Virus record (IMG/VR): IMGVR_UViG_3300045988_036424
Span: 1-5,514 of that record
Length of the DNA stretch: 5,514 bases
Source of the DNA: a virus
Reading direction: 5' to 3' (one strand)
Below are positions 43 to 5,514 of the stretch, piece by piece. The position numbers were made by a program, and so were the translations under genes. Within the stretch, counting starts at the first letter, position 1, and every line of letters starts with the position of its first letter. The notes beneath the pieces are model-generated. The model worked only from the letters and a program-made list of their open reading frames with translations. It had not been told where the DNA came from and searched no databases.

Positions 43-357
43 CTCGGCCTTTTCGTGCATCGTCATGATGTCCTTCGGCAGATTTTCGAGGTCTGTGCCT
101 TCGGTGTATACCATGCTTTTTGCCTTGATGGATGTGTCTCCAGCTTCCAGTCTTGCGATTGCGCTTGCAAGGTCGTAGCCCTCGCCGGCTCGCTGGATTT
201 TCTCGTATGTGTTCTCATCCGGCTGCTGAATGTAGTCGGTTGTGTCGTTCGGTCGCTTTACTGCTTTCCACGTTGGGGCAGTCTTGCTGCCCGGATTGTT
301 TGCTACTCTTTCAGTTGGCATTCCGTAGTATCTTACCATCACATCAGGATTTAACAT
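1..357 (-). CDS. N-terminal 119 codons of a 142-aa ORF that crosses the circular junction and continues at 5472 down to 5401. Putative internal scaffolding protein (VP3-like) by position. The C-terminal tail is rich in Glu and Lys.
   Basis: Hand translation: ATG at 357-355 is preceded by AAGGAGA plus a 6-nt spacer. The product is MLNPDVMVRYYGMPTERVANNPGSKTAPTWKAVKRPNDTTDYIQQPDENTYEKIQRAGEGYDLASAIARLEAGDTSIKAKSMVYTEGTDLENLPKDIMTMHEKAEAAAETMEQLKQVQQ, open to base 1. The ORF sits immediately upstream of VP1 and downstream of the VP5-like gene, as VP3 does in gokushoviruses. Its start overlaps the upstream gene's stop by 14 nt. The functional call rests on synteny and size only. Confidence 0.6.
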   Translation of the reverse strand, partial: MLNPDVMVRYYGMPTERVANNPGSKTAPTWKAVKRPNDTTDYIQQPDENTYEKIQRAGEGYDLASAIARLEAGDTSIKAKSMVYTEGTDLENLPKDIMTMHEKAEAAAETMEQLKQVQQ

Positions 358-598
358 TGGCTGTCTCCTTCAGGTCGATGAGCCGTGCGATGTGTTCAGG
401 CATTGCTTCGCTCATGTAGCCGGTCTCGGTGTCAAATTCGCCCAGTTCCACGAGGCTGATGTCTTCGATTTCGCTTGGCTTGCTTTCGTTGGCTTTCCAT
501 CGTGCCGTTCGGACTGCCTGTGCCCGGTTGTTCTGCAGGAACGGCTGCGAGTAGCCATTGGTCAGCGAATCGTGGAATGTGTAGAACTTCAGTTTCAT
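344..598 (-). CDS. Small non-structural protein, 84 aa, resembling gokushovirus VP5/ORF5.
   Basis: ORF track. ATG at 598 is preceded by GGAGGGG plus a 7-nt spacer. The N-terminus MKLKFYTFHDSLTNGYSQPF...A.R and the segment EDISLVELGEFDTETG resemble the recalled VP5 pattern (MK.FT..D.K......PFF....A.R.F ... PEDY.L.EIG.FD..TG). The gene lies between the accessory genes and the VP3-like gene, as expected. Confidence 0.65.
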   Translation of the reverse strand: MKLKFYTFHDSLTNGYSQPFLQNNRAQAVRTARWKANESKPSEIEDISLVELGEFDTETGYMSEAMPEHIARLIDLKETANVKS

Positions 599-601
599 GT
601 T

Positions 602-994
602 TTAGCCCCTCCATCGAGCTTTCTTTTCCCTTACGTCTATGTGCGTAAAGTTTTCGTATCTGCCTATTCCGTATTTGTCTGGATATTTGCGGTTTAGGTA
701 TCTTTGCACTTCGCTTGCTGGCACCGTTTTCACTTTGATGTCGGCTGCCGTGCCCTTTGTGTGTTGTGAGTTTTTTACACCGCCGATTTTCTTGTTATAT
801 TCTGGTGTTCTGTATCCGCTGGTGATTATTACCGGCATTTTGAAGTTTGTTCTTACATCTTCCAGCACTTTTATCAGTTCTGAGTCGATGAGAACTTCAT
901 CACACTGGTAATCTTTTTGCGCAAATTCTTTCACTTTGAAGTGTTCGCTTACTTGGTGGGTGCCCTGATTGAATAAGCTGTATTCATGCAGCAT
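602..994 (-). CDS. Zinc-dependent cell-wall peptidase of the M15 family (Peptidase_M15_3 / DUF882-like). It is a catalytic domain only and a putative endolysin.
   Basis: 130 aa. Motifs SGYRTPEYN, SQHTKGTAAD (His-x6-Asp) and FTHID (distal His-x-Asp) match the H..D...H zinc triad layout of M15 peptidases. The N-terminal HFKVKEF motif is also typical. No N-terminal hydrophobic signal is present (MLHEYSLFNQGTHQ...). The RBS-like GGGGAAAGAG lies upstream of ATG 994. Confidence 0.88.
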   Translation of the reverse strand: MLHEYSLFNQGTHQVSEHFKVKEFAQKDYQCDEVLIDSELIKVLEDVRTNFKMPVIITSGYRTPEYNKKIGGVKNSQHTKGTAADIKVKTVPASEVQRYLNRKYPDKYGIGRYENFTHIDVREKKARWRG

Positions 995-996
995 TT

Positions 997-1107
997 TTAC
1001 TCTTTCCCCGCGTCTTTCAGTGCGTGGTAAATCTCGTCAAGCTTTTCCAGAATGCGCATCATCAGTTCAATCGCTTCTTTGACGTCCTTGACCTTAATCA
1101 GTGCCAT
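997..1107 (-). CDS. Hypothetical 36-aa micro-ORF with a charged, helical-looking product (MALIKVKDVKEAIELMMRILEKLDEIYHALKDAGKE). It is not in the ORF track.
   Basis: Hand translation. ATG at 1107 is preceded by AAGGAGATGG with about 7 nt spacing. The TAA stop at 999-997 lies 2 nt before the peptidase ATG, a translationally coupled layout. I recognise no homology. Confidence 0.5.
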   Translation of the reverse strand: MALIKVKDVKEAIELMMRILEKLDEIYHALKDAGKE

Positions 1108-1142: not shown

Positions 1143-1259
1143 CTACAGCCTGATGCCGCCCCGGCTGACCTTTGGCCGGACGTTGATGTTTTTTACCCGC
1201 TTTGCAGTCTGGGTAAAATGTTTCTGGTCGCCTCGACCCGCTCCGCTTCTGTGTGCCAT
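1143..1259 (-). CDS. Small, highly basic DNA-binding/packaging protein of 38 aa (phiX174 J-like, gokushovirus ORF8-like). It is not in the ORF track.
   Basis: Hand translation: GAAAGGAGATAACACA-ATG gives a strong SD. The product is MAHRSGAGRGDQKHFTQTAKRVKNINVRPKVSRGGIRL*. It is rich in Arg and Lys and ends in RGGIRL, which I recall as the characteristic C-terminus (MRGGIRF/L) of chlamydiaphage ORF8-type proteins. Confidence 0.75.
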   Translation of the reverse strand: MAHRSGAGRGDQKHFTQTAKRVKNINVRPKVSRGGIRL

Positions 1260-1278: not shown

Positions 1279-1320
1279 TAAATATAAAAGGCAGACAACC
1301 AATATTGGTCGTCTGCCTTT
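1279..1320 (-). terminator. Rho-independent terminator-like hairpin downstream of rep. The stem is 14 bp, the loop 6 nt, and a U-rich tail follows.
   Basis: Minus strand reads AAAGGCAGACGACC-AATATT-GGTTGTCTGCCTTT followed by TATATTTAAAAG. The stems are 1320-1307 and 1300-1287. On the minus-strand RNA the only imperfect pair is a G-U wobble, whereas on the plus strand it is an A-C mismatch. This favours function on minus-strand transcripts. Confidence 0.6.
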
Positions 1321-1349
1321 ATTTTATACAAAAACTTCTGTTTTGTCAA
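1321..1349 (-). promoter_or_regulatory. Sigma-70-type promoter candidate for the J-like / orf36 / peptidase / VP5 / VP3 / VP1 gene block.
   Basis: Minus strand reads TTGACA (1349-1344), a 17-nt spacer, then TAAAAT (1326-1321). That is 6/6 and 5/6 matches to consensus with optimal spacing. It lies about 60 nt upstream of the first strong SD of the block. This is sequence-pattern evidence only. Confidence 0.5.
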
Positions 1350-1489: not shown

Positions 1490-2479
1490 TCATGCTTTCG
1501 GCTCACGCCATTTTTGCTTTAGCTTGTCCTTTTCCTTCTGAATGTTTAGATAGGTTTCATAATCCACGCTTGTAGACTGTTCGAGATTGATTAAGCTTTG
1601 TATTGCACTGCGTCTGCGTCTGGCTCTAACTTCTCTCAGCTCGTCAGAATGTGCCTTAAAATAGCTTTCAGTGTCTTGGCTGGTATCCTTATCAAGTATC
1701 TTATCAAAATAGCGTGGTGGCCTTTTTTCGCGTCCCCCTGCACAGATGATGCTATCTGTCTTTAAGATTTCATCTTTGTGTTCGTTCAGATACTTTTCGC
1801 CAATGCCTTTCGACATGATTCGGAACTCTGGCTCTCTGCCTTCCATCCAGTATTTTGCCGCTTGCTCTGCACCTATGGCTTTCTTGTTGACGTATTGCGC
1901 CACGTATGCAAAGCTTCCCGGTTGTGCTGGTGAAAAGTCTATCATGCCATTGCCCCAGATTTTTTGTAGCCATTCGCTTTTGAAATAGCTGTTGCCTTTT
2001 TGGTTTTTATACCATTGTGCATCCGGTGGCTTTAATCCGAATACTATAGCATGATAGTGTGGTCTTTTTGTTCTGTCGCCGTATTCGGCTGCTAGGAAGT
2101 ATTTTATTGGCTTCTTGTATGCTTTCCGTAGACGTTTCAGAAATAGCTGCACGTCTCGCTTGCTTACTGTTTGACTTTGAATGCTTCTGTAGCCTTTGAC
2201 GATTTCGCCGTATGGTATATGCTCATCGTCATACGTCAGTGTTAGAAAAATCACATCGTTCCATTCTTTGGCTTCTAGCTCTATTCTGGTTGCCCATTGG
2301 TCTGCTATCTGTTTGCGGCAGTACTCGCATTTACCGCATGGTAACAATGCGAATTTTCCTTTTTTGATTCCGTCCATGATGTCCGTTTGCAGTCCTTGTT
2401 TGGATAGGTTTTCCAGACTTCCCCATAGTTTTGGTTTTTTCGTATCCATTTGAAATACTAATGGTTTTGTACATGGCAT
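1490..2479 (-). CDS. Replication initiation protein (Microviridae VP4 / phiX174 gpA-like HUH rolling-circle endonuclease).
   Basis: Motif 1 is FLTLTY, motif 2 is HYHAIVF (HUH), and motif 3 is AYVAQYVNKK with paired catalytic tyrosines as in phiX174 A. An N-terminal Cys cluster PCGKCEYCR is present. The ORF track extends to a GTG at 2494 (334 aa). I prefer the ATG at 2479 (329 aa) because it gives the MPCxxP N-terminus typical of VP4 proteins. The start remains uncertain. Confidence 0.93.
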   Translation of the reverse strand: MPCTKPLVFQMDTKKPKLWGSLENLSKQGLQTDIMDGIKKGKFALLPCGKCEYCRKQIADQWATRIELEAKEWNDVIFLTLTYDDEHIPYGEIVKGYRSIQSQTVSKRDVQLFLKRLRKAYKKPIKYFLAAEYGDRTKRPHYHAIVFGLKPPDAQWYKNQKGNSYFKSEWLQKIWGNGMIDFSPAQPGSFAYVAQYVNKKAIGAEQAAKYWMEGREPEFRIMSKGIGEKYLNEHKDEILKTDSIICAGGREKRPPRYFDKILDKDTSQDTESYFKAHSDELREVRARRRRSAIQSLINLEQSTSVDYETYLNIQKEKDKLKQKWREPKA

Positions 2480-2487
2480 TTTTGTTA

Positions 2488-2520
2488 CCGGCACAAGCTT
2501 CCTTGTCTATCTTGTGCCGG
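2488..2520. promoter_or_regulatory. Perfect 10-bp inverted repeat with a 13-nt loop, immediately upstream of (or overlapping) the rep start.
   Basis: ccggcacaag (2488-2497) and cttgtgccgg (2511-2520) are exact reverse complements. On the minus strand the loop reads ATAGACAAGGAAG and contains an SD-like AAGGAAG. The alternative GTG start at 2494 lies inside the stem. Confidence 0.7.
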
Positions 2521-2573: not shown

Positions 2574-2731
2574 TGTTGAAAGTGTTGAAAACTCGTTTTT
2601 TTAACGTTACTACGTTTATTTATTGTCTTTTTGCCTGTTGAAAACTTTGTTGAATTGTTGAATGTTCGTCATTTTTACGAATTTCTTTGTGCAACTTGTT
2701 GTTGAAAACCTGTTGAAAGTGTTGAAAACTC
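2574..2731. repeat. Iteron array of eight GTTGAA(A) copies (TTTCAAC on the coding strand) in three clusters. It includes a perfect 21-nt direct repeat.
   Basis: GTTGAA starts at 2575, 2584, 2637, 2649, 2657, 2701, 2712 and 2721. The clusters begin 62 and 64 nt apart. TGTTGAAAGTGTTGAAAACTC is identical at 2574-2594 and 2711-2731. The array lies in the only large non-coding region (2495-2805). Confidence 0.85.
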
Positions 2732-2769: not shown

Positions 2770-2799
2770 AAAAAAGGGGGATGTTTTCCACCCCCCCTT
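2770..2799 (-). terminator. Rho-independent terminator downstream of VP2.
   Basis: Minus strand just after the VP2 TAA (2808-2806) reads AAGGGGGGG-TGGAAAACAT-CCCCC-TTTTTTG. This is a G/C stem (2776-2780 paired with 2791-2797) followed by a T6 run (2775-2770). Confidence 0.65.
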
Positions 2800-2805
2800 C
2801 CTTTC

Positions 2806-3675
2806 TTAGTCTCCTTTGTATGCGTTGAATGCGTCCATGTTTGGCATGATTGGCACTCTTTGGTTGTACTTTTTGAAGTTTTCTGCTGTGTCTTTGGCTG
2901 CTTTGCCAGCTTTTTCTGCTGCTTTTTCTGCTGCTTTTTTGGCTGCTTTGCCGGCTCCCGCAAGGCCTGCACCTAATTTGCTAGCTGCATAGGTGTACTG
3001 TTGCGCCTGTTTTGCGCTTGAGGTTGCCAGCTCGCTCGCTGCCTGTTCCCAGCTTTTCGCATTCTTAAACTGTTTTGCGCTGGTCGCCTGTTTTGCCAGC
3101 TGTAAGTATTTGTCTGCCAGTTCTGCCGTGTTGTTGCCATATTCGTACATTGCGGATACGCTTGCAGCCTGTGCGCTCTGCTGGTTATAACGTTGGCTTC
3201 CAATGCTTGCAGATGCTCCCGATGGTGCGCTTGTTGCTCCGTTGGTCGCTGCTAGGATAGGATTGATGCCCGCTGCGATCATGTCCTTTACGGTATCTTG
3301 ATAGGCTGTCCCGCGCATTTCCTTTTGAAACGCTCGTTCTGCTGCTGCTTCTGCGCTGTTGTACTTCTTGGCGCTTGCTTGGCTTCCAGCATTCGCGAGG
3401 TTGCTCAGCAGTCCGCTCATCATTTGCAGTGCGTTTGCGGTGTTTACGCTGCTCTGGTTGCCGAATGTGGCAATACCTGTTGGCGTGCTGATTTGTGTCG
3501 CACCGATTTGCTGTGGTGCTGTTACACTGCCGGTTGTGGTCTCGTTGCCTGATGTGGTCTCGTTGCCTGATGCTTGGCTGTTTTTGGCTCCGCTCTGGTT
3601 ACTGCTCGTTATGATGCCTGTTAATATGCTTAGCCCTTGCATGAGGTATGGCATAAAGCTTAATAACGTCTCCAT
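2806..3675 (-). CDS. DNA pilot / minor capsid protein (VP2, phiX174 H-like).
   Basis: 289 aa and located immediately downstream of VP1. It has a hydrophobic N-terminal segment (LLSFMPYLMQGLSILTGIITS), a long low-complexity body rich in Ala, Gln and Ser, and a Lys/Ala-repeat C-terminus (KAAKKAAEKAAEKAGKAAK). This composition is typical of microvirus pilot proteins. The call rests on synteny and composition, not on a specific motif. Confidence 0.8.
   Translation of the reverse strand: METLLSFMPYLMQGLSILTGIITSSNQSGAKNSQASGNETTSGNETTTGSVTAPQQIGATQISTPTGIATFGNQSSVNTANALQMMSGLLSNLANAGSQASAKKYNSAEAAAERAFQKEMRGTAYQDTVKDMIAAGINPILAATNGATSAPSGASASIGSQRYNQQSAQAASVSAMYEYGNNTAELADKYLQLAKQATSAKQFKNAKSWEQAASELATSSAKQAQQYTYAASKLGAGLAGAGKAAKKAAEKAAEKAGKAAKDTAENFKKYNQRVPIMPNMDAFNAYKGD
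3536..3571. repeat. Perfect 2 x 18-nt in-frame tandem duplication inside VP2.
   Basis: gtggtctcgttgcctgat occurs at 3536-3553 and again at 3554-3571. It encodes the duplicated SGNETT-SGNETT segment. Confidence 0.95.
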
Positions 3676-3709
3676 TCAAAAATAGCCCCGCTTTTGCGGG
3701 GCTTCCTCC
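3676..3709 (-). promoter_or_regulatory. Intercistronic hairpin between VP1 and VP2. It is a candidate partial terminator (attenuator) and sits between the only SD and the VP2 start codon.
   Basis: Minus strand reads TAA-GGAAGGAGGA-AGCCCCGC-AAAA-GCGGGGCT-ATTTTTGA-ATG. The 8-bp GC-rich stem (3703-3696 / 3691-3684) has an AAAA tetraloop and is followed by AUUUUUGA. GGAGG (3709-3705) is 29 nt from the ATG linearly, but only 9 unpaired nt separate them if the hairpin is folded. Confidence 0.65.
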
Positions 3710-3713
3710 TTCC

Positions 3714-5384
3714 TTAAATTCTTTCGATTCCCGGGATGCTGTAGATAGGCATTTCGCGGTACCAATCTTCTGTGAAATAGAAGTCACACAAGAATTGGTG
3801 GCTTTTTGCGCTTGTTACTGCAATCGTTCGGTCAACGTTCTTTGTTTCTTCCTGAATCCATTCTGCCGAGAGACGCGGAAGCGTTTCATAATCGTCTGCA
3901 TAGTGCCATGCGTCCAAACTTGTCTGGTAGTTAGACCGCATTTCGCCGGTTACGTAAGAAGGCTTGTAGCGGTAATCCGCCCATGCCTCTTGATAGCCAA
4001 AGATTTCATTATCTTCTGCCGTGCCTTGTGCATAGATTTCGCGGTTGTACACCGGTTGTTCGCCCAGTGCTGCCAGTCGCGGGTCGTAGTAGGTGAATCG
4101 TCCGCCACGTGTCCACTTGGTTGCAAGCCCCTGCTGGTAGCTGTGCTCTACTCGTACCACTGCCAGACCGATGATATAGCCGTACTCAGTTGCCGCATAG
4201 TCTACCATCTCTTTACTGCACGTGGTCAGGCTGTATGCTGCCGTATTGCCCAGTGCCTGTCCGGTTGTCGGGTCCGTCTGGCTTGTCTGCACAACCTGAT
4301 TGACATTGATCGCGATGCGCTGGCCGCCGATGTACTCAGGAATCTGCAGACGGCTGTCCGGTGACGTTACGCCCCACGTACCAGACAGGAACTCGCGATA
4401 GCGCGTGCCGTTGCGTGCATCTGCTTCAAAGATGTGCTGCAATGCAATAGCCATGCGCAAATCTGCAATGCTGATTGCGTTCAAGCTATTTAGGTTTGCG
4501 CCTAGGAATCCTTCTCTAAAGTTTGTTCCTTGGTTTGAGCTCGCCCCCTTTAATTGTGCCGGTTCATTTTCTCCCGGTGCTCCCGGTATATTACAGATTG
4601 CCGGGTATGCTGGTCCCGTTCCGTTCAGGTAAATTGTTACGTTATCCGTAAGTTTATTCGTCAATTCTTTGTTTGTGAATACATTTACGGCTGCGTTTCC
4701 CGTCAGGCTGATTTCCACAGGGTCAGCTTTTAACGGACTCGGCAAACAGCTGGTGAAGTAGTCGTGGAATTTACCAGCTTTTGCGGGATGTCGTGCGTAT
4801 AAGGTCCCCTCGTTTGTGTTTGTCGTTAGGCTTGGTTTGTTTGCGTAGAAATCTTTTGTTGCGTTCCCGGGATTTGGTTCTTTTCCTCCGTTATCTTCTT
4901 TTTTGTACCCTAACATTAACGGCGCTTCAAGATTTTCATCTCGAAACCATTCGTTGTATATCATGGCATACGCTCTTGCTGGGAGTGCGTTCACTTTGAT
5001 TTCGTTTTTTACTCCGGTCGGCAGTCCAAAGTAGTCTCCGATGCTGCCGTTATTTAGACCGGATGTGCCTCCGATTGTGCAAGTCGGTGTGCTGTATTCG
5101 GTCTTTTCTGCCCAGTAGTTTGTGTCGTTTTCTCCGAACATGTTTTCCCAGTGTTCCCAGAGCAGACGACAGGGCACAAAGAAGAAGTAGGTATCCATGT
5201 AGCAGTTGTCCATGATAGGATAGATTGGAGTACTCATACGAATAAGCCCGTTAAGTCGCACTCGTGCGGTATCGCCCGGAAGCACTTCATCGCAGTAGAT
5301 GGGCACTAGATCGCCTTCGTTGATGGTCGTCAGGAGCTGATGACTTCTGTCAAATTTGCTTCGTGGTCGTTCCATTCGCGGCAC
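3714..5384 (-). CDS. Major capsid protein (Microviridae VP1 / F-like).
   Basis: 556 aa from the track's GTG at 5384. The N-terminal signature is RPRSKFDRSHQLLTTINEGDLVPIYCDEVLPGDT, matching the microvirus pattern RS.FD.SH..KTT...G.L.P...DE.LPGDT. The size is typical of gokushovirus-like VP1. The true start is uncertain: alternatives are ATG 5375, or a non-canonical start upstream at 5417 (see findings). Confidence 0.95.
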   Translation of the reverse strand: MPRMERPRSKFDRSHQLLTTINEGDLVPIYCDEVLPGDTARVRLNGLIRMSTPIYPIMDNCYMDTYFFFVPCRLLWEHWENMFGENDTNYWAEKTEYSTPTCTIGGTSGLNNGSIGDYFGLPTGVKNEIKVNALPARAYAMIYNEWFRDENLEAPLMLGYKKEDNGGKEPNPGNATKDFYANKPSLTTNTNEGTLYARHPAKAGKFHDYFTSCLPSPLKADPVEISLTGNAAVNVFTNKELTNKLTDNVTIYLNGTGPAYPAICNIPGAPGENEPAQLKGASSNQGTNFREGFLGANLNSLNAISIADLRMAIALQHIFEADARNGTRYREFLSGTWGVTSPDSRLQIPEYIGGQRIAINVNQVVQTSQTDPTTGQALGNTAAYSLTTCSKEMVDYAATEYGYIIGLAVVRVEHSYQQGLATKWTRGGRFTYYDPRLAALGEQPVYNREIYAQGTAEDNEIFGYQEAWADYRYKPSYVTGEMRSNYQTSLDAWHYADDYETLPRLSAEWIQEETKNVDRTIAVTSAKSHQFLCDFYFTEDWYREMPIYSIPGIERI

Positions 5385-5400: not shown

Positions 5401-5514
5401 TCACTGTTTCTGTTCGTTTTCCTTCACCTCTTCCTTTTTTTCTTCCTTCTCTTCCGGCTTCGGCTGTTCGGTCTGTTGTACCTGTTTCAGCTGTTCCATT
5501 GTTTCGGCTGCTGC
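5401..5514 (-). CDS. C-terminal part of the same junction-spanning VP3-like ORF. Bases 5473-5514 duplicate 1-42, and the stop codon TGA is at 5403-5401.
   Basis: Reverse complement of 5472-5401 reads ACC GAA CAG CCG AAG CCG GAA GAG AAG GAA GAA AAA AAG GAA GAG GTG AAG GAA AAC GAA CAG AAA CAG TGA, in frame with codons 1-119 across the junction (TEQPKPEEKEEKKEEVKENEQKQ*). Confidence 0.6.
   Translation of the reverse strand, partial: AAAETMEQLKQVQQTEQPKPEEKEEKKEEVKENEQKQ
5473..5514. repeat. Right copy of the 42-nt terminal direct repeat (circular overlap).
   Basis: Identical to 1-42. Confidence 0.95.

Follow-up and report, generated by a model that had tools for sequence, protein, structure and literature searches.

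How gokushoviruses, which are among the most abundant phages with single-stranded DNA in the human gut, lyse their hosts is a question raised directly by a genome that encodes a peptidoglycan peptidase with no recognisable means of bringing it to the cell wall. We examined such a case in the 5,514-nucleotide (nt) IMG/VR record IMGVR_UViG_3300045988_036424, a human-gut gokushovirus that we refer to over its whole length as the window. The gene in question is an open reading frame (ORF) at 602-994 on the minus strand, and we propose that its product is probably a late-expressed release endolysin, providing the wall-degrading step of host lysis. The elements on which the argument turns are as follows.

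602-994, minus strand: M15 peptidase ORF of 130 amino acids (aa) with an ATG start, matching PF08291 and PHROG 894
997-1107, minus strand: orf36, 36 aa, with a strong Shine-Dalgarno (SD) site (AAAGGAG), a conserved gene of no assigned family
3601-3675, minus strand: N-terminal hydrophobic segment of VP2, METLLSFMPYLMQGLSILTGIITSS, with a Kyte-Doolittle mean of 1.56, the sole transmembrane-like segment of the coding strand

The initial annotation had read the ORF at 602-994 as a 130-aa M15-type zinc peptidase and had named a search against PF08291 and PF13539, together with a structure prediction, as ways of checking this. In our searches the protein matched PF08291 (Peptidase_M15_3) at E=1.8e-28 and 99.3 bits (cut-off 23.2) over profile positions 2-108 of 108, as well as PF05951 (E=6e-8) and PHROG 894 'endolysin' (E=7e-44), so that the first of the two families was borne out while the second, PF13539, stayed under that family's cut-off (0.065). 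The motifs picked out by eye are likewise present as S59-G-Y-R62...N67, H78-x6-D85 and H118-x-D120, and across 32 aligned homologues R62, N67, S76, H78, D85, H118 and D120 never vary. H78 and D85, plus H118 as the third histidine, are the predicted zinc ligands; R62 occupies the position of the substrate-binding arginine (SxxR), and D120 that of the general-base acidic residue, two after the third histidine. A single-sequence phmmer search against PDB returned zero matches, and a homologue-based profile matched 1LBU, the Streptomyces albus zinc DD-peptidase, at 8e-11. This match covers an S-x-H...A-A-D stretch (S-x-H-x-x-G-x-A-A-D in the window enzyme), and the S-x-H...D stretch of 1LBU is one that we take to contain two of its zinc ligands. 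By motif position, R62 and D120 would be equivalent to Arg71 and Glu181 of VanX and to Arg47 and Asp120 of ChiX (PMC5778951).

The AlphaFold (AF2) model of the peptidase, with a predicted local distance difference test (pLDDT) score of 93, gives it a predicted hedgehog/DD-peptidase fold. Foldseek placed 1LBU, VanY, hedgehog N-domains and ChiX as the best matches in PDB, with probabilities of 0.99-1.0 and weak E-values, and the comparison with BFVD returned tailed-phage peptidases at TM 0.87-0.91 along with several marine microvirus 'Peptidase M15A' entries. Judged by profile, motif and model, the ORF at 602-994 is a bare catalytic-domain M15A/Peptidase_M15_3 zinc peptidase of the LAS group; the protein is small (~15 kDa) and basic, with an isoelectric point (pI) of 9.4.

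We then searched for the origin of this enzyme. A peptidase with 100% identity is present in public metagenome assemblies, on contigs of ~5.6 kb (P0001), and more than 100 clusters of this type (type A), 72-100% identical to the window enzyme, lie on contigs of at most ~6 kb, the complete ones measuring 5.4-6.1 kb. More than 120 clusters of a second type (type B) likewise lie on contigs of at most ~6 kb, and complete contigs of the two types together measure 5.3-6.2 kb; the matches listed in the type B search were all microviral clusters, with no cellular homologues among them. Below 72% identity to type A there is a gap, and the next homologues reach at most 62%. The nearest ones outside microviruses are found in prophages, both by integrases: the gene in P0110 (61%, NCBI name Oscillibacter sp.) has a 4-nt overlap with the end of an 82-aa Phage_r1t_holin gene, and that in P0109 (62%) lies directly downstream of a 71-aa Phage_holin_Dp1 gene. 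A further homologue, in a 38-kb double-stranded DNA (dsDNA) phage and 54% identical, also has a holin nearby. Because the prophage homologues sit behind holins, the microvirus appears to hold the endolysin half of a holin-endolysin cassette. In addition, the type A peptidase is 55-62% identical to Oscillibacter-type prophage endolysins as against 39-47% to microviral type B, and these comparisons identify it, at the level of sequence, as a xenologue of an Oscillibacter-type (Clostridia) prophage endolysin that was acquired without its holin. The P0110 and P0109 cassettes likewise encode a bare M15_3 domain, of 129-131 aa, that is 61-62% identical to the window enzyme and carries the same invariant residues, but there the endolysin gene overlaps or directly follows that of a 71-82-aa transmembrane holin, which the microvirus lacks.

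The same arrangement recurs throughout the relatives of this virus. We surveyed 69 IMG/VR relatives picked by VP1, plus GenBank and Logan genomes, and defined a clade of 71 genomes, the window counted, whose VP1 proteins are 66-93% identical. Exactly one recognisable M15 peptidase is present in each of the 71, as is an orf36 homologue, and a 38-aa basic DNA-binding protein is present in 70; the earlier impression that M15 peptidases are only sporadic in microviruses thus does not hold here. In 19 genomes, including the window, the order is VP4, DNA-binding protein, orf36, peptidase A, VP5, and in 50, including KX513876, it is VP4, peptidase B, DNA-binding protein, orf36, VP5, with an intermediate order in one further genome. 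Peptidase B shares 70-83% identity with its counterpart in a sister lineage (VP1 ~40% identical), in which a third order is found (peptidase, orf36, a 75-aa ORF, DNA-binding protein, VP5), and there are two more peptidase lineages, the L063/L106 type and the L043 type. Together, these at least four peptidase lineages and three gene orders document, by sequence comparison, repeated replacement at different sites. Such constant retention of one copy through repeated replacement amounts to strong selection for a wall hydrolase, and no replacement event retained a holin. The result is a clean comparative case, in which hundreds of genome clusters always have exactly one wall peptidase, replaced several times from outside, and never have the holin that the donor cassettes possess. 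In a comparison with KX513876.1 (L001) and 68 other genomes, we also observed that the window, L004 and L005 are mosaics, pairing an orf36 of the EKLDEIYHAL subtype, which is characteristic of type B genomes, with a type A peptidase in the type A position; each of the two orf36 subtypes is found with each of the two peptidase types, in four combinations, which implies recombination within the accessory region.

How, then, might the enzyme leave the cytoplasm? The peptidase has no signal peptide or signal-arrest-release (SAR) segment, as had been claimed for it: its highest Kyte-Doolittle 19-residue mean is 0.66, and residues 2-6 form a strand of the predicted fold (pLDDT 97), placing the N-terminus inside the folded domain. 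Using the same 19-residue mean, we scanned all stop-to-stop frames of at least 20 aa. Only two matches arose on the coding strand, the VP2 N-terminus, whose hydrophobic segment is kept in the relative L069 (1.62), and a start-less frame within VP1. This VP1 alternate frame (5053-5250, Kyte-Doolittle 1.72) was considered as an E-like gene and rejected, for it has no ATG, GTG or TTG start; a stop codon lies directly upstream of the hydrophobic stretch in nearly all relatives, so that it is not an ORF, and its similarity between genomes follows from VP1 conservation only. Also rejected, as a composition artefact, were 73 hydrophobic plus-strand frames, including a 90-aa ORF antisense to the peptidase, which stem from the T-rich non-coding strand. 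The scan down to 20 aa that the initial annotation had called for therefore uncovered no missed transmembrane ORF.

We found no holin-like transmembrane ORF by the endolysin, and no overprinted ORF of the phiX174 E type, on the coding strand of the window or of 70 relatives. Across the 71 clade genomes no coding-strand transmembrane ORF besides the VP2 N-terminus was accepted, two further matches above threshold looking spurious. The 'no holin' puzzle is thus genuine and clade-wide, and firmer than it was as a claim about a single genome, being built on negative evidence and uncultured hosts. The pattern implies one of three things: a core membrane breach that is not a holin, an exit route for a signal-less lysin from a Clostridia-type cell, or an intracellular target.

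Membrane proteins can nevertheless occur in the wider group. An ORF of 38-39 aa with a single transmembrane segment and a C-terminal K-x-W-R-x-E-K lies between the DNA-binding gene and VP5 in KT264793.1 (L045, 1941-2060) and L121 (5146-5262), two A-rich gut gokushoviruses of the sister lineage, of which the former has a peptidase and the latter has none. Where T makes up only 18% of the genome, chance would hardly produce an ORF of this kind. It is a lysis-protein candidate, either a holin or E-like, and is absent from the window's clade. Furthermore, a 132-kb contig of an uncultured Clostridia metagenome-assembled genome (MAG), CALWEH010000003.1 (L187), contains at ~6300-11600 an integrated gokushovirus prophage with a VP1 41% identical to that of the window; it encodes VP5, VP3, VP1, VP2, VP4, a DNA-binding protein and two transmembrane ORFs (71 and 56 aa), with no peptidase and no orf36. 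Taken together, these ORFs indicate that membrane proteins occur in the group and that the window's clade does without.

Base composition offers a separate observation. Coding-strand T is 15-19% (with 34-38% A) in peptidase-bearing gokushoviruses and averages 29% in those without a peptidase (loci L046-L185 plus the window), L138 and L173 being exceptions to the pattern. T-poor genomes are hardly able to encode overprinted transmembrane proteins, and this may be linked to their reliance on a lysis enzyme.

The likely hosts bear on the same question. A search of genome contigs returned only a binned free contig of 5.7 kb and the distant Clostridia prophage just described. The donor lineage of peptidase A, the strong AAAGGAG SD sites and this prophage point indirectly to Oscillospiraceae/Clostridia as hosts; the prophage is direct evidence that gokushoviruses infect Clostridia, and microvirus prophages are known in Firmicutes (Kirchberger et al. 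2022). The peptidase lineages also suggest that a major group of gut phages, as yet uncultured, infects Oscillospiraceae.

The timing of expression is suggested by the genome layout, for which the following features are needed. The initial annotation had treated the genome as gokushovirus-like, and this is supported.

3714-5384, minus strand: VP1 (PF02305, E=1e-145)
2806-3675, minus strand: VP2 pilot protein, matching pilot-protein PHROGs
1490-2494, minus strand: VP4 replication initiator (Rep), matching Rep families, at the upstream border of the accessory-gene region
1287-1320, minus strand: terminator-like hairpin, a 15-bp stem followed by a T-rich tail, downstream of VP4
1321-1349, minus strand: sigma-70-like promoter TTGACA-17-TAAAAT, 11 of 12 positions, from a consensus scan only
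1143-1259, minus strand: J/VP8-like DNA-binding protein, 38 aa (MAHRSGAGRGDQKHFTQTAKRVKNINVRPKVSRGGIRL), pI 12, with a strong SD site, identified by tblastn and phrog_10695
344-598, minus strand: VP5 (PF20577), directly downstream of the peptidase
spanning the circular junction, minus strand: VP3-like ORF of 142 aa with an acidic lysine/glutamate-rich C-terminus, assigned by position only
3684-3703, minus strand: GC-rich terminator-like hairpin between VP1 and VP2

Every recognisable gene of the window lies on the minus strand. The promoter-like site at 1349-1321 precedes the genes for the DNA-binding protein, which comes first, orf36, the peptidase, VP5, VP3, VP1 and VP2, and this site together with the hairpins at 1320-1287 and 3703-3684 suggests late co-expression of the peptidase; the latter hairpin could lower VP2 expression relative to that of VP1.

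On these grounds we infer a role in lysis and a passage of the membrane that is independent of a holin. The virus has taken an endolysin without its holin and inserted it in the late operon between orf36 and VP5. The peptidase would then be made in the cytoplasm alongside the capsid proteins, the cytoplasmic membrane would be breached by a phage component other than a classical holin, and the enzyme would go on to cut the peptidoglycan of the host at a bond in the stem peptide or the cross-link. The first candidate for the lesion would be the N-terminal hydrophobic segment of VP2 and the second the amphipathic helix of orf36, with the peptidase supplementing a lysis capacity that peptidase-less gokushoviruses must also have. 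For the membrane step in particular, a non-holin phage product may quite possibly be responsible; there is some chance that it is accomplished by other means, and a slightly smaller one that it depends on a host export route or on host autolysis, our second choice among the named routes.

Several points weigh against the peptidase being a release endolysin of this kind. Its enzymatic activity, timing and localisation, and the membrane-breaching element, are all predictions from sequence and model. orf36 is acidic and has no transmembrane segment, and the hydrophobic segment of VP2 is a general trait of pilot proteins, not one peculiar to peptidase-bearing genomes. Tailed phages, too, have M15 domains in tail proteins of 900-1200 aa, and these function during entry. 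Moreover, L138, an A-rich genome related to L121, has neither peptidase nor orf36 nor any transmembrane ORF, and so lysis may need none of them. Finally, the binned free contig of 5.7 kb (CAVKUS010000079.1, L186), whose VP1 is 86% identical to that of the window, was assigned to a 'Bacteroides sp. CAG:545' MAG; this binning is probably an artefact, and as the only direct host label the contig provides weak contrary evidence.

Both the peptidase gene and the role presumed for it had been published and annotated before; the gene itself is no discovery, and the novelty first attached to it was overstated. M15_3 peptidases were described by Roux et al. 2012 (PMC3394797) in the human gut, from 5 Gokushovirinae and 6 Alpavirinae. 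That study showed at least two horizontal acquisitions, grouped four of the gokushoviral enzymes with those of Faecalibacterium and Anaerofustis, pointed out that the bacterial homologues have holins next to them, and suggested that the enzymes serve as endolysins. Kirchberger et al. 2022 treated peptidases as lysis-associated accessory genes in many microvirus families, with recombination between families, and a 2024 roseophage study found M15 peptidases in most Occultatumvirinae and regarded microviral peptidases as lysis genes. In GenBank, KX513876.1 and KX513864.1 are annotated with 'peptidase M15'. The peptidases of KX513876 and of Roux et al. share with that of the window the virus group, Pfam family, habitat, endolysin proposal and proposed transfer from Clostridiales-type bacteria. 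They differ in that KX513876 has a type B peptidase between VP4 and the DNA-binding gene, 42% identical to the type A enzyme that the window has between orf36 and VP5; and PMC3394797, unlike the present analysis, left the missing holin and the orf36 family unaddressed. Bardy et al. 2025 (PMC11980548) showed by zymogram that a peptidoglycan hydrolase of microvirus Ebor degrades host peptidoglycan and found trace amounts of it in virions. This protein, Gp7, is like the window enzyme an accessory wall hydrolase of a microvirus (~146 aa), with an experimentally shown activity (PMC11980548), the likeness being one of role; Ebor belongs to another subfamily, the Tainavirinae, and has an alphaproteobacterial host, and its genome, unlike the window, also codes for Gp1, a predicted membrane protein of 45 aa.

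Of the other explanations, one would make orf36 a dedicated partner of the peptidase, either as an export chaperone in the manner of Gp1 of phage Ms6 or as an amphipathic, membrane-perturbing substitute for a holin, and this we regard as unlikely. That orf36 is a real gene is well supported: the core h-x-x-h-h-x-I-L-x-x-h-D-x-I-Y-H is found in 84 of 84 genomes of two lineages, with I19, L20, D24, I26, Y27 and H28 invariant, and a pooled ratio of non-synonymous to synonymous polymorphism (pN/pS) of 0.32 at pS 0.61 indicates purifying selection. AF2 models it as one helix over residues 6-35 (pLDDT 92). Its 18-residue hydrophobic moment is 0.51-0.69 (0.69 in the window), a value reached by 0.2-4% of shuffles and similar to those of delta-toxin, PSM-alpha3 and melittin. 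On the other hand, its net charge of -1 to -8 is unlike that of known membrane-active peptides; the window copy (-1) is charged and not hydrophobic, as had been noted. Searches of Pfam and NCBIfam placed orf36 in no family, its PHROG matches were not significant, and in a single-sequence search only 23 short orphan representatives (30-79 aa) among 1.84e9 proteins matched it.

The genetic evidence on such a partnership is similarly divided. In the window, the TAA stop of orf36 lies 2 nt ahead of the peptidase ATG and the two genes are translationally coupled, as had been noted; they are adjacent in 18 other clade genomes as well. The partnership itself fares less well, because the DNA-binding gene lies between peptidase and orf36, in the order peptidase, DNA-binding protein, orf36, in 50 of 70 scored genomes (the window included, and one without a recognisable DNA-binding gene omitted), and because the orf36 subtypes EKLDEIYHAL and AMVDKIYHAV each occur with both peptidase types, contrary to what is expected of a co-evolving physical pair. 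Co-occurrence fits a functional link: both genes are found together throughout the clade (71/71), and among 74 outgroup gokushoviruses (VP1 38-47% identical) 8 have both, none has the peptidase only, one (L121) has orf36 only and 65 have neither. However, the genomes in which the pair occurs fall into just one or two lineages, themselves related, so that shared ancestry confounds this count, and other microvirus-sized contigs have an M15 peptidase without orf36. A hidden Markov model (HMM) of orf36 found no match in the prophage and dsDNA-phage loci with homologous holin-coupled endolysins, and this absence speaks for the partnership. The idea that orf36 is a remnant of the C-terminal tail of a donor holin was rejected, as there is no by-eye likeness to the r1t-type holin of L031 and the HMM was blank in the prophage loci. 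In mycobacteriophage Ms6, the Gp1-LysA pair provides chaperone-assisted, holin-independent export of an endolysin. Like orf36, Gp1 is the product of a small ORF that lies directly upstream of a signal-less endolysin and is coupled to it in translation, and the host is of monoderm type; the two sequences are unrelated, and adjacency to the endolysin is not conserved for orf36, whose subtypes reassort. In view of the confounded ancestry, the unconserved adjacency and the reassortment, we do not accept orf36 as a dedicated partner, and it remains a candidate helper.

It is comparably improbable that the peptidase is a virion-associated lysin acting at entry, with a few packaged or capsid-bound copies opening the thick monoderm wall and thereby giving the VP2 conduit access to the membrane. 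The enzyme would then need no export route, in keeping with the lack of a signal peptide or holin; the gene is, judging by the layout, co-transcribed with the structural genes, its product is basic (pI 9.4), M15A domains are found within the large tail proteins of tailed phages, and Ebor Gp7 was detected in virions, in trace amounts only (PMC11980548). Against this, the closest homologues are holin-coupled prophage endolysins, no capsid-binding motif was identified in the peptidase, and known microvirus virions are made up only of the capsid protein, the pilot protein and the DNA-binding protein, to which Ebor adds one that mitigates charge (PMC11980548).

A more doubtful proposal is that the enzyme never crosses the membrane and that growing cells lyse from within because it hydrolyses cytoplasmic or lipid-linked precursors, such as D-Ala-D-Ala, UDP-MurNAc-pentapeptide or the stem peptide of lipid II. 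Such an enzyme would do by catalysis what phiX174 E, Q-beta A2 and LysM do, with no holin required. Like the window virus, phiX174 is a small single-stranded DNA phage that lyses its host without a holin-endolysin pair, its E protein blocking MraY, but E is an overprinted, non-enzymatic transmembrane protein, whereas the window protein is an enzyme and no overprinted transmembrane ORF accompanies it. In tailed phages, endolysins of the peptidase and amidase kinds build up in the cytoplasm, with no lysis until the holin fires, and this counts against such a mode of action. In its favour, it would explain the missing export device in the window and ~80 related genomes, small phages typically block wall synthesis (PMC3394797), and there is a precedent in E. 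coli, where M15-family VanX in the cytoplasm leads to lysis by blocking the incorporation of D-Ala-D-Ala, as stated in a passage of PMC11514776 that cites Sohya 2014. A weak NCBIfam similarity of the window protein to VanXY (E=0.0099) and to MepK also speaks for it. VanX as described in that passage shares with the window protein the peptidase clan and a cytoplasmic location, and no membrane protein is involved in the lysis it causes. Its substrate is the free dipeptide, however, and the window protein is much nearer to wall-acting endolysins: it has 55-62% identity and shared invariant residues with holin-coupled endolysins that act on the mature wall, and its similarity to VanXY is negligible (15 bits against a 250-bit cut-off). 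The endopeptidase ChiX of Serratia, a signal-less LAS-fold L-Ala-D-Glu enzyme that is a structural match to the window model with an equivalent arginine and aspartate, needs the holin ChiW to reach the periplasm (PMC5778951). If lysis from within were true, a small phage would for the first time be seen to use an enzyme as its 'protein antibiotic' (single-gene lysis), and it would be clear why a T-poor gokushovirus lineage, hardly able to encode an overprinted transmembrane protein, always keeps one M15 peptidase and never a holin.

Least probable of all, a holin or lesion might be supplied in trans by a resident prophage, or by stress-activated host autolysins, with the phage adding only extra wall hydrolase; Oscillibacter-type genomes do hold prophages with r1t/Dp1-type holins by homologous lysins, and the clade has no holin, but lysis would then hinge on the prophages of each host strain, resident holins are repressed in lysogens, and the universal retention of the peptidase over hundreds of genome clusters argues for a self-sufficient system.

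Turning to the remainder of the window, its ends form a 42-nt terminal direct repeat (1-42 and 5473-5514), which indicates a circular genome of 5472 nt; the VP3-like ORF, which spans the junction, escapes the linear ORF list. The nearest GenBank genome is Human gut gokushovirus KX513876.1, with 89% identity across 87% of the window. The coding strand has 36% A and 17% T, and the plus strand is T-rich. The 38-aa DNA-binding protein, whose sequence is nearly invariant in the clade, had tblastn matches in 121 phage records, several labelled 'DNA binding protein', and matched phrog_10695 at E=2.6e-6; its gene is without annotation in the four closest GenBank genomes.

The interval between VP4 and the DNA-binding gene (1260-1489 in the window) is a hot spot for accessory genes. 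The window carries no gene there, and the equivalent interval holds a 72-aa ORF in L004 and L005, ORFs of 64 and 56 aa in L037, and the type B peptidase in most clade genomes. ORF71 (1278-1493), with a mildly hydrophobic N-terminus, was considered here and rejected, since it is kept only in the two nearest genomes, with other sequence elsewhere, and it also contains the promoter-like site and the terminator hairpin. Two further structural features were detected around VP4 and VP2.

2488-2520, minus strand: 10-bp hairpin overlapping the nominal GTG start of VP4
2771-2797, minus strand: G-run/C-run hairpin followed by T6, just past the VP2 stop

Given the position of the first hairpin, the real start of VP4 may be an ATG five codons further down. 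Finally, the intergenic region between VP2 and VP4 (2574-2727, minus strand) contains six exact copies of TTTCAACA within 154 nt, against 0.24 expected, and the array includes the 21-mer GAGTTTTCAACACTTTCAACA in duplicate. The array was not found in 64 other gokushoviruses; in the clade it is kept on the coding strand (median 7 copies), in the sister lineage on the opposite one (median likewise 7), and from its sequence it looks iteron- or operator-like.

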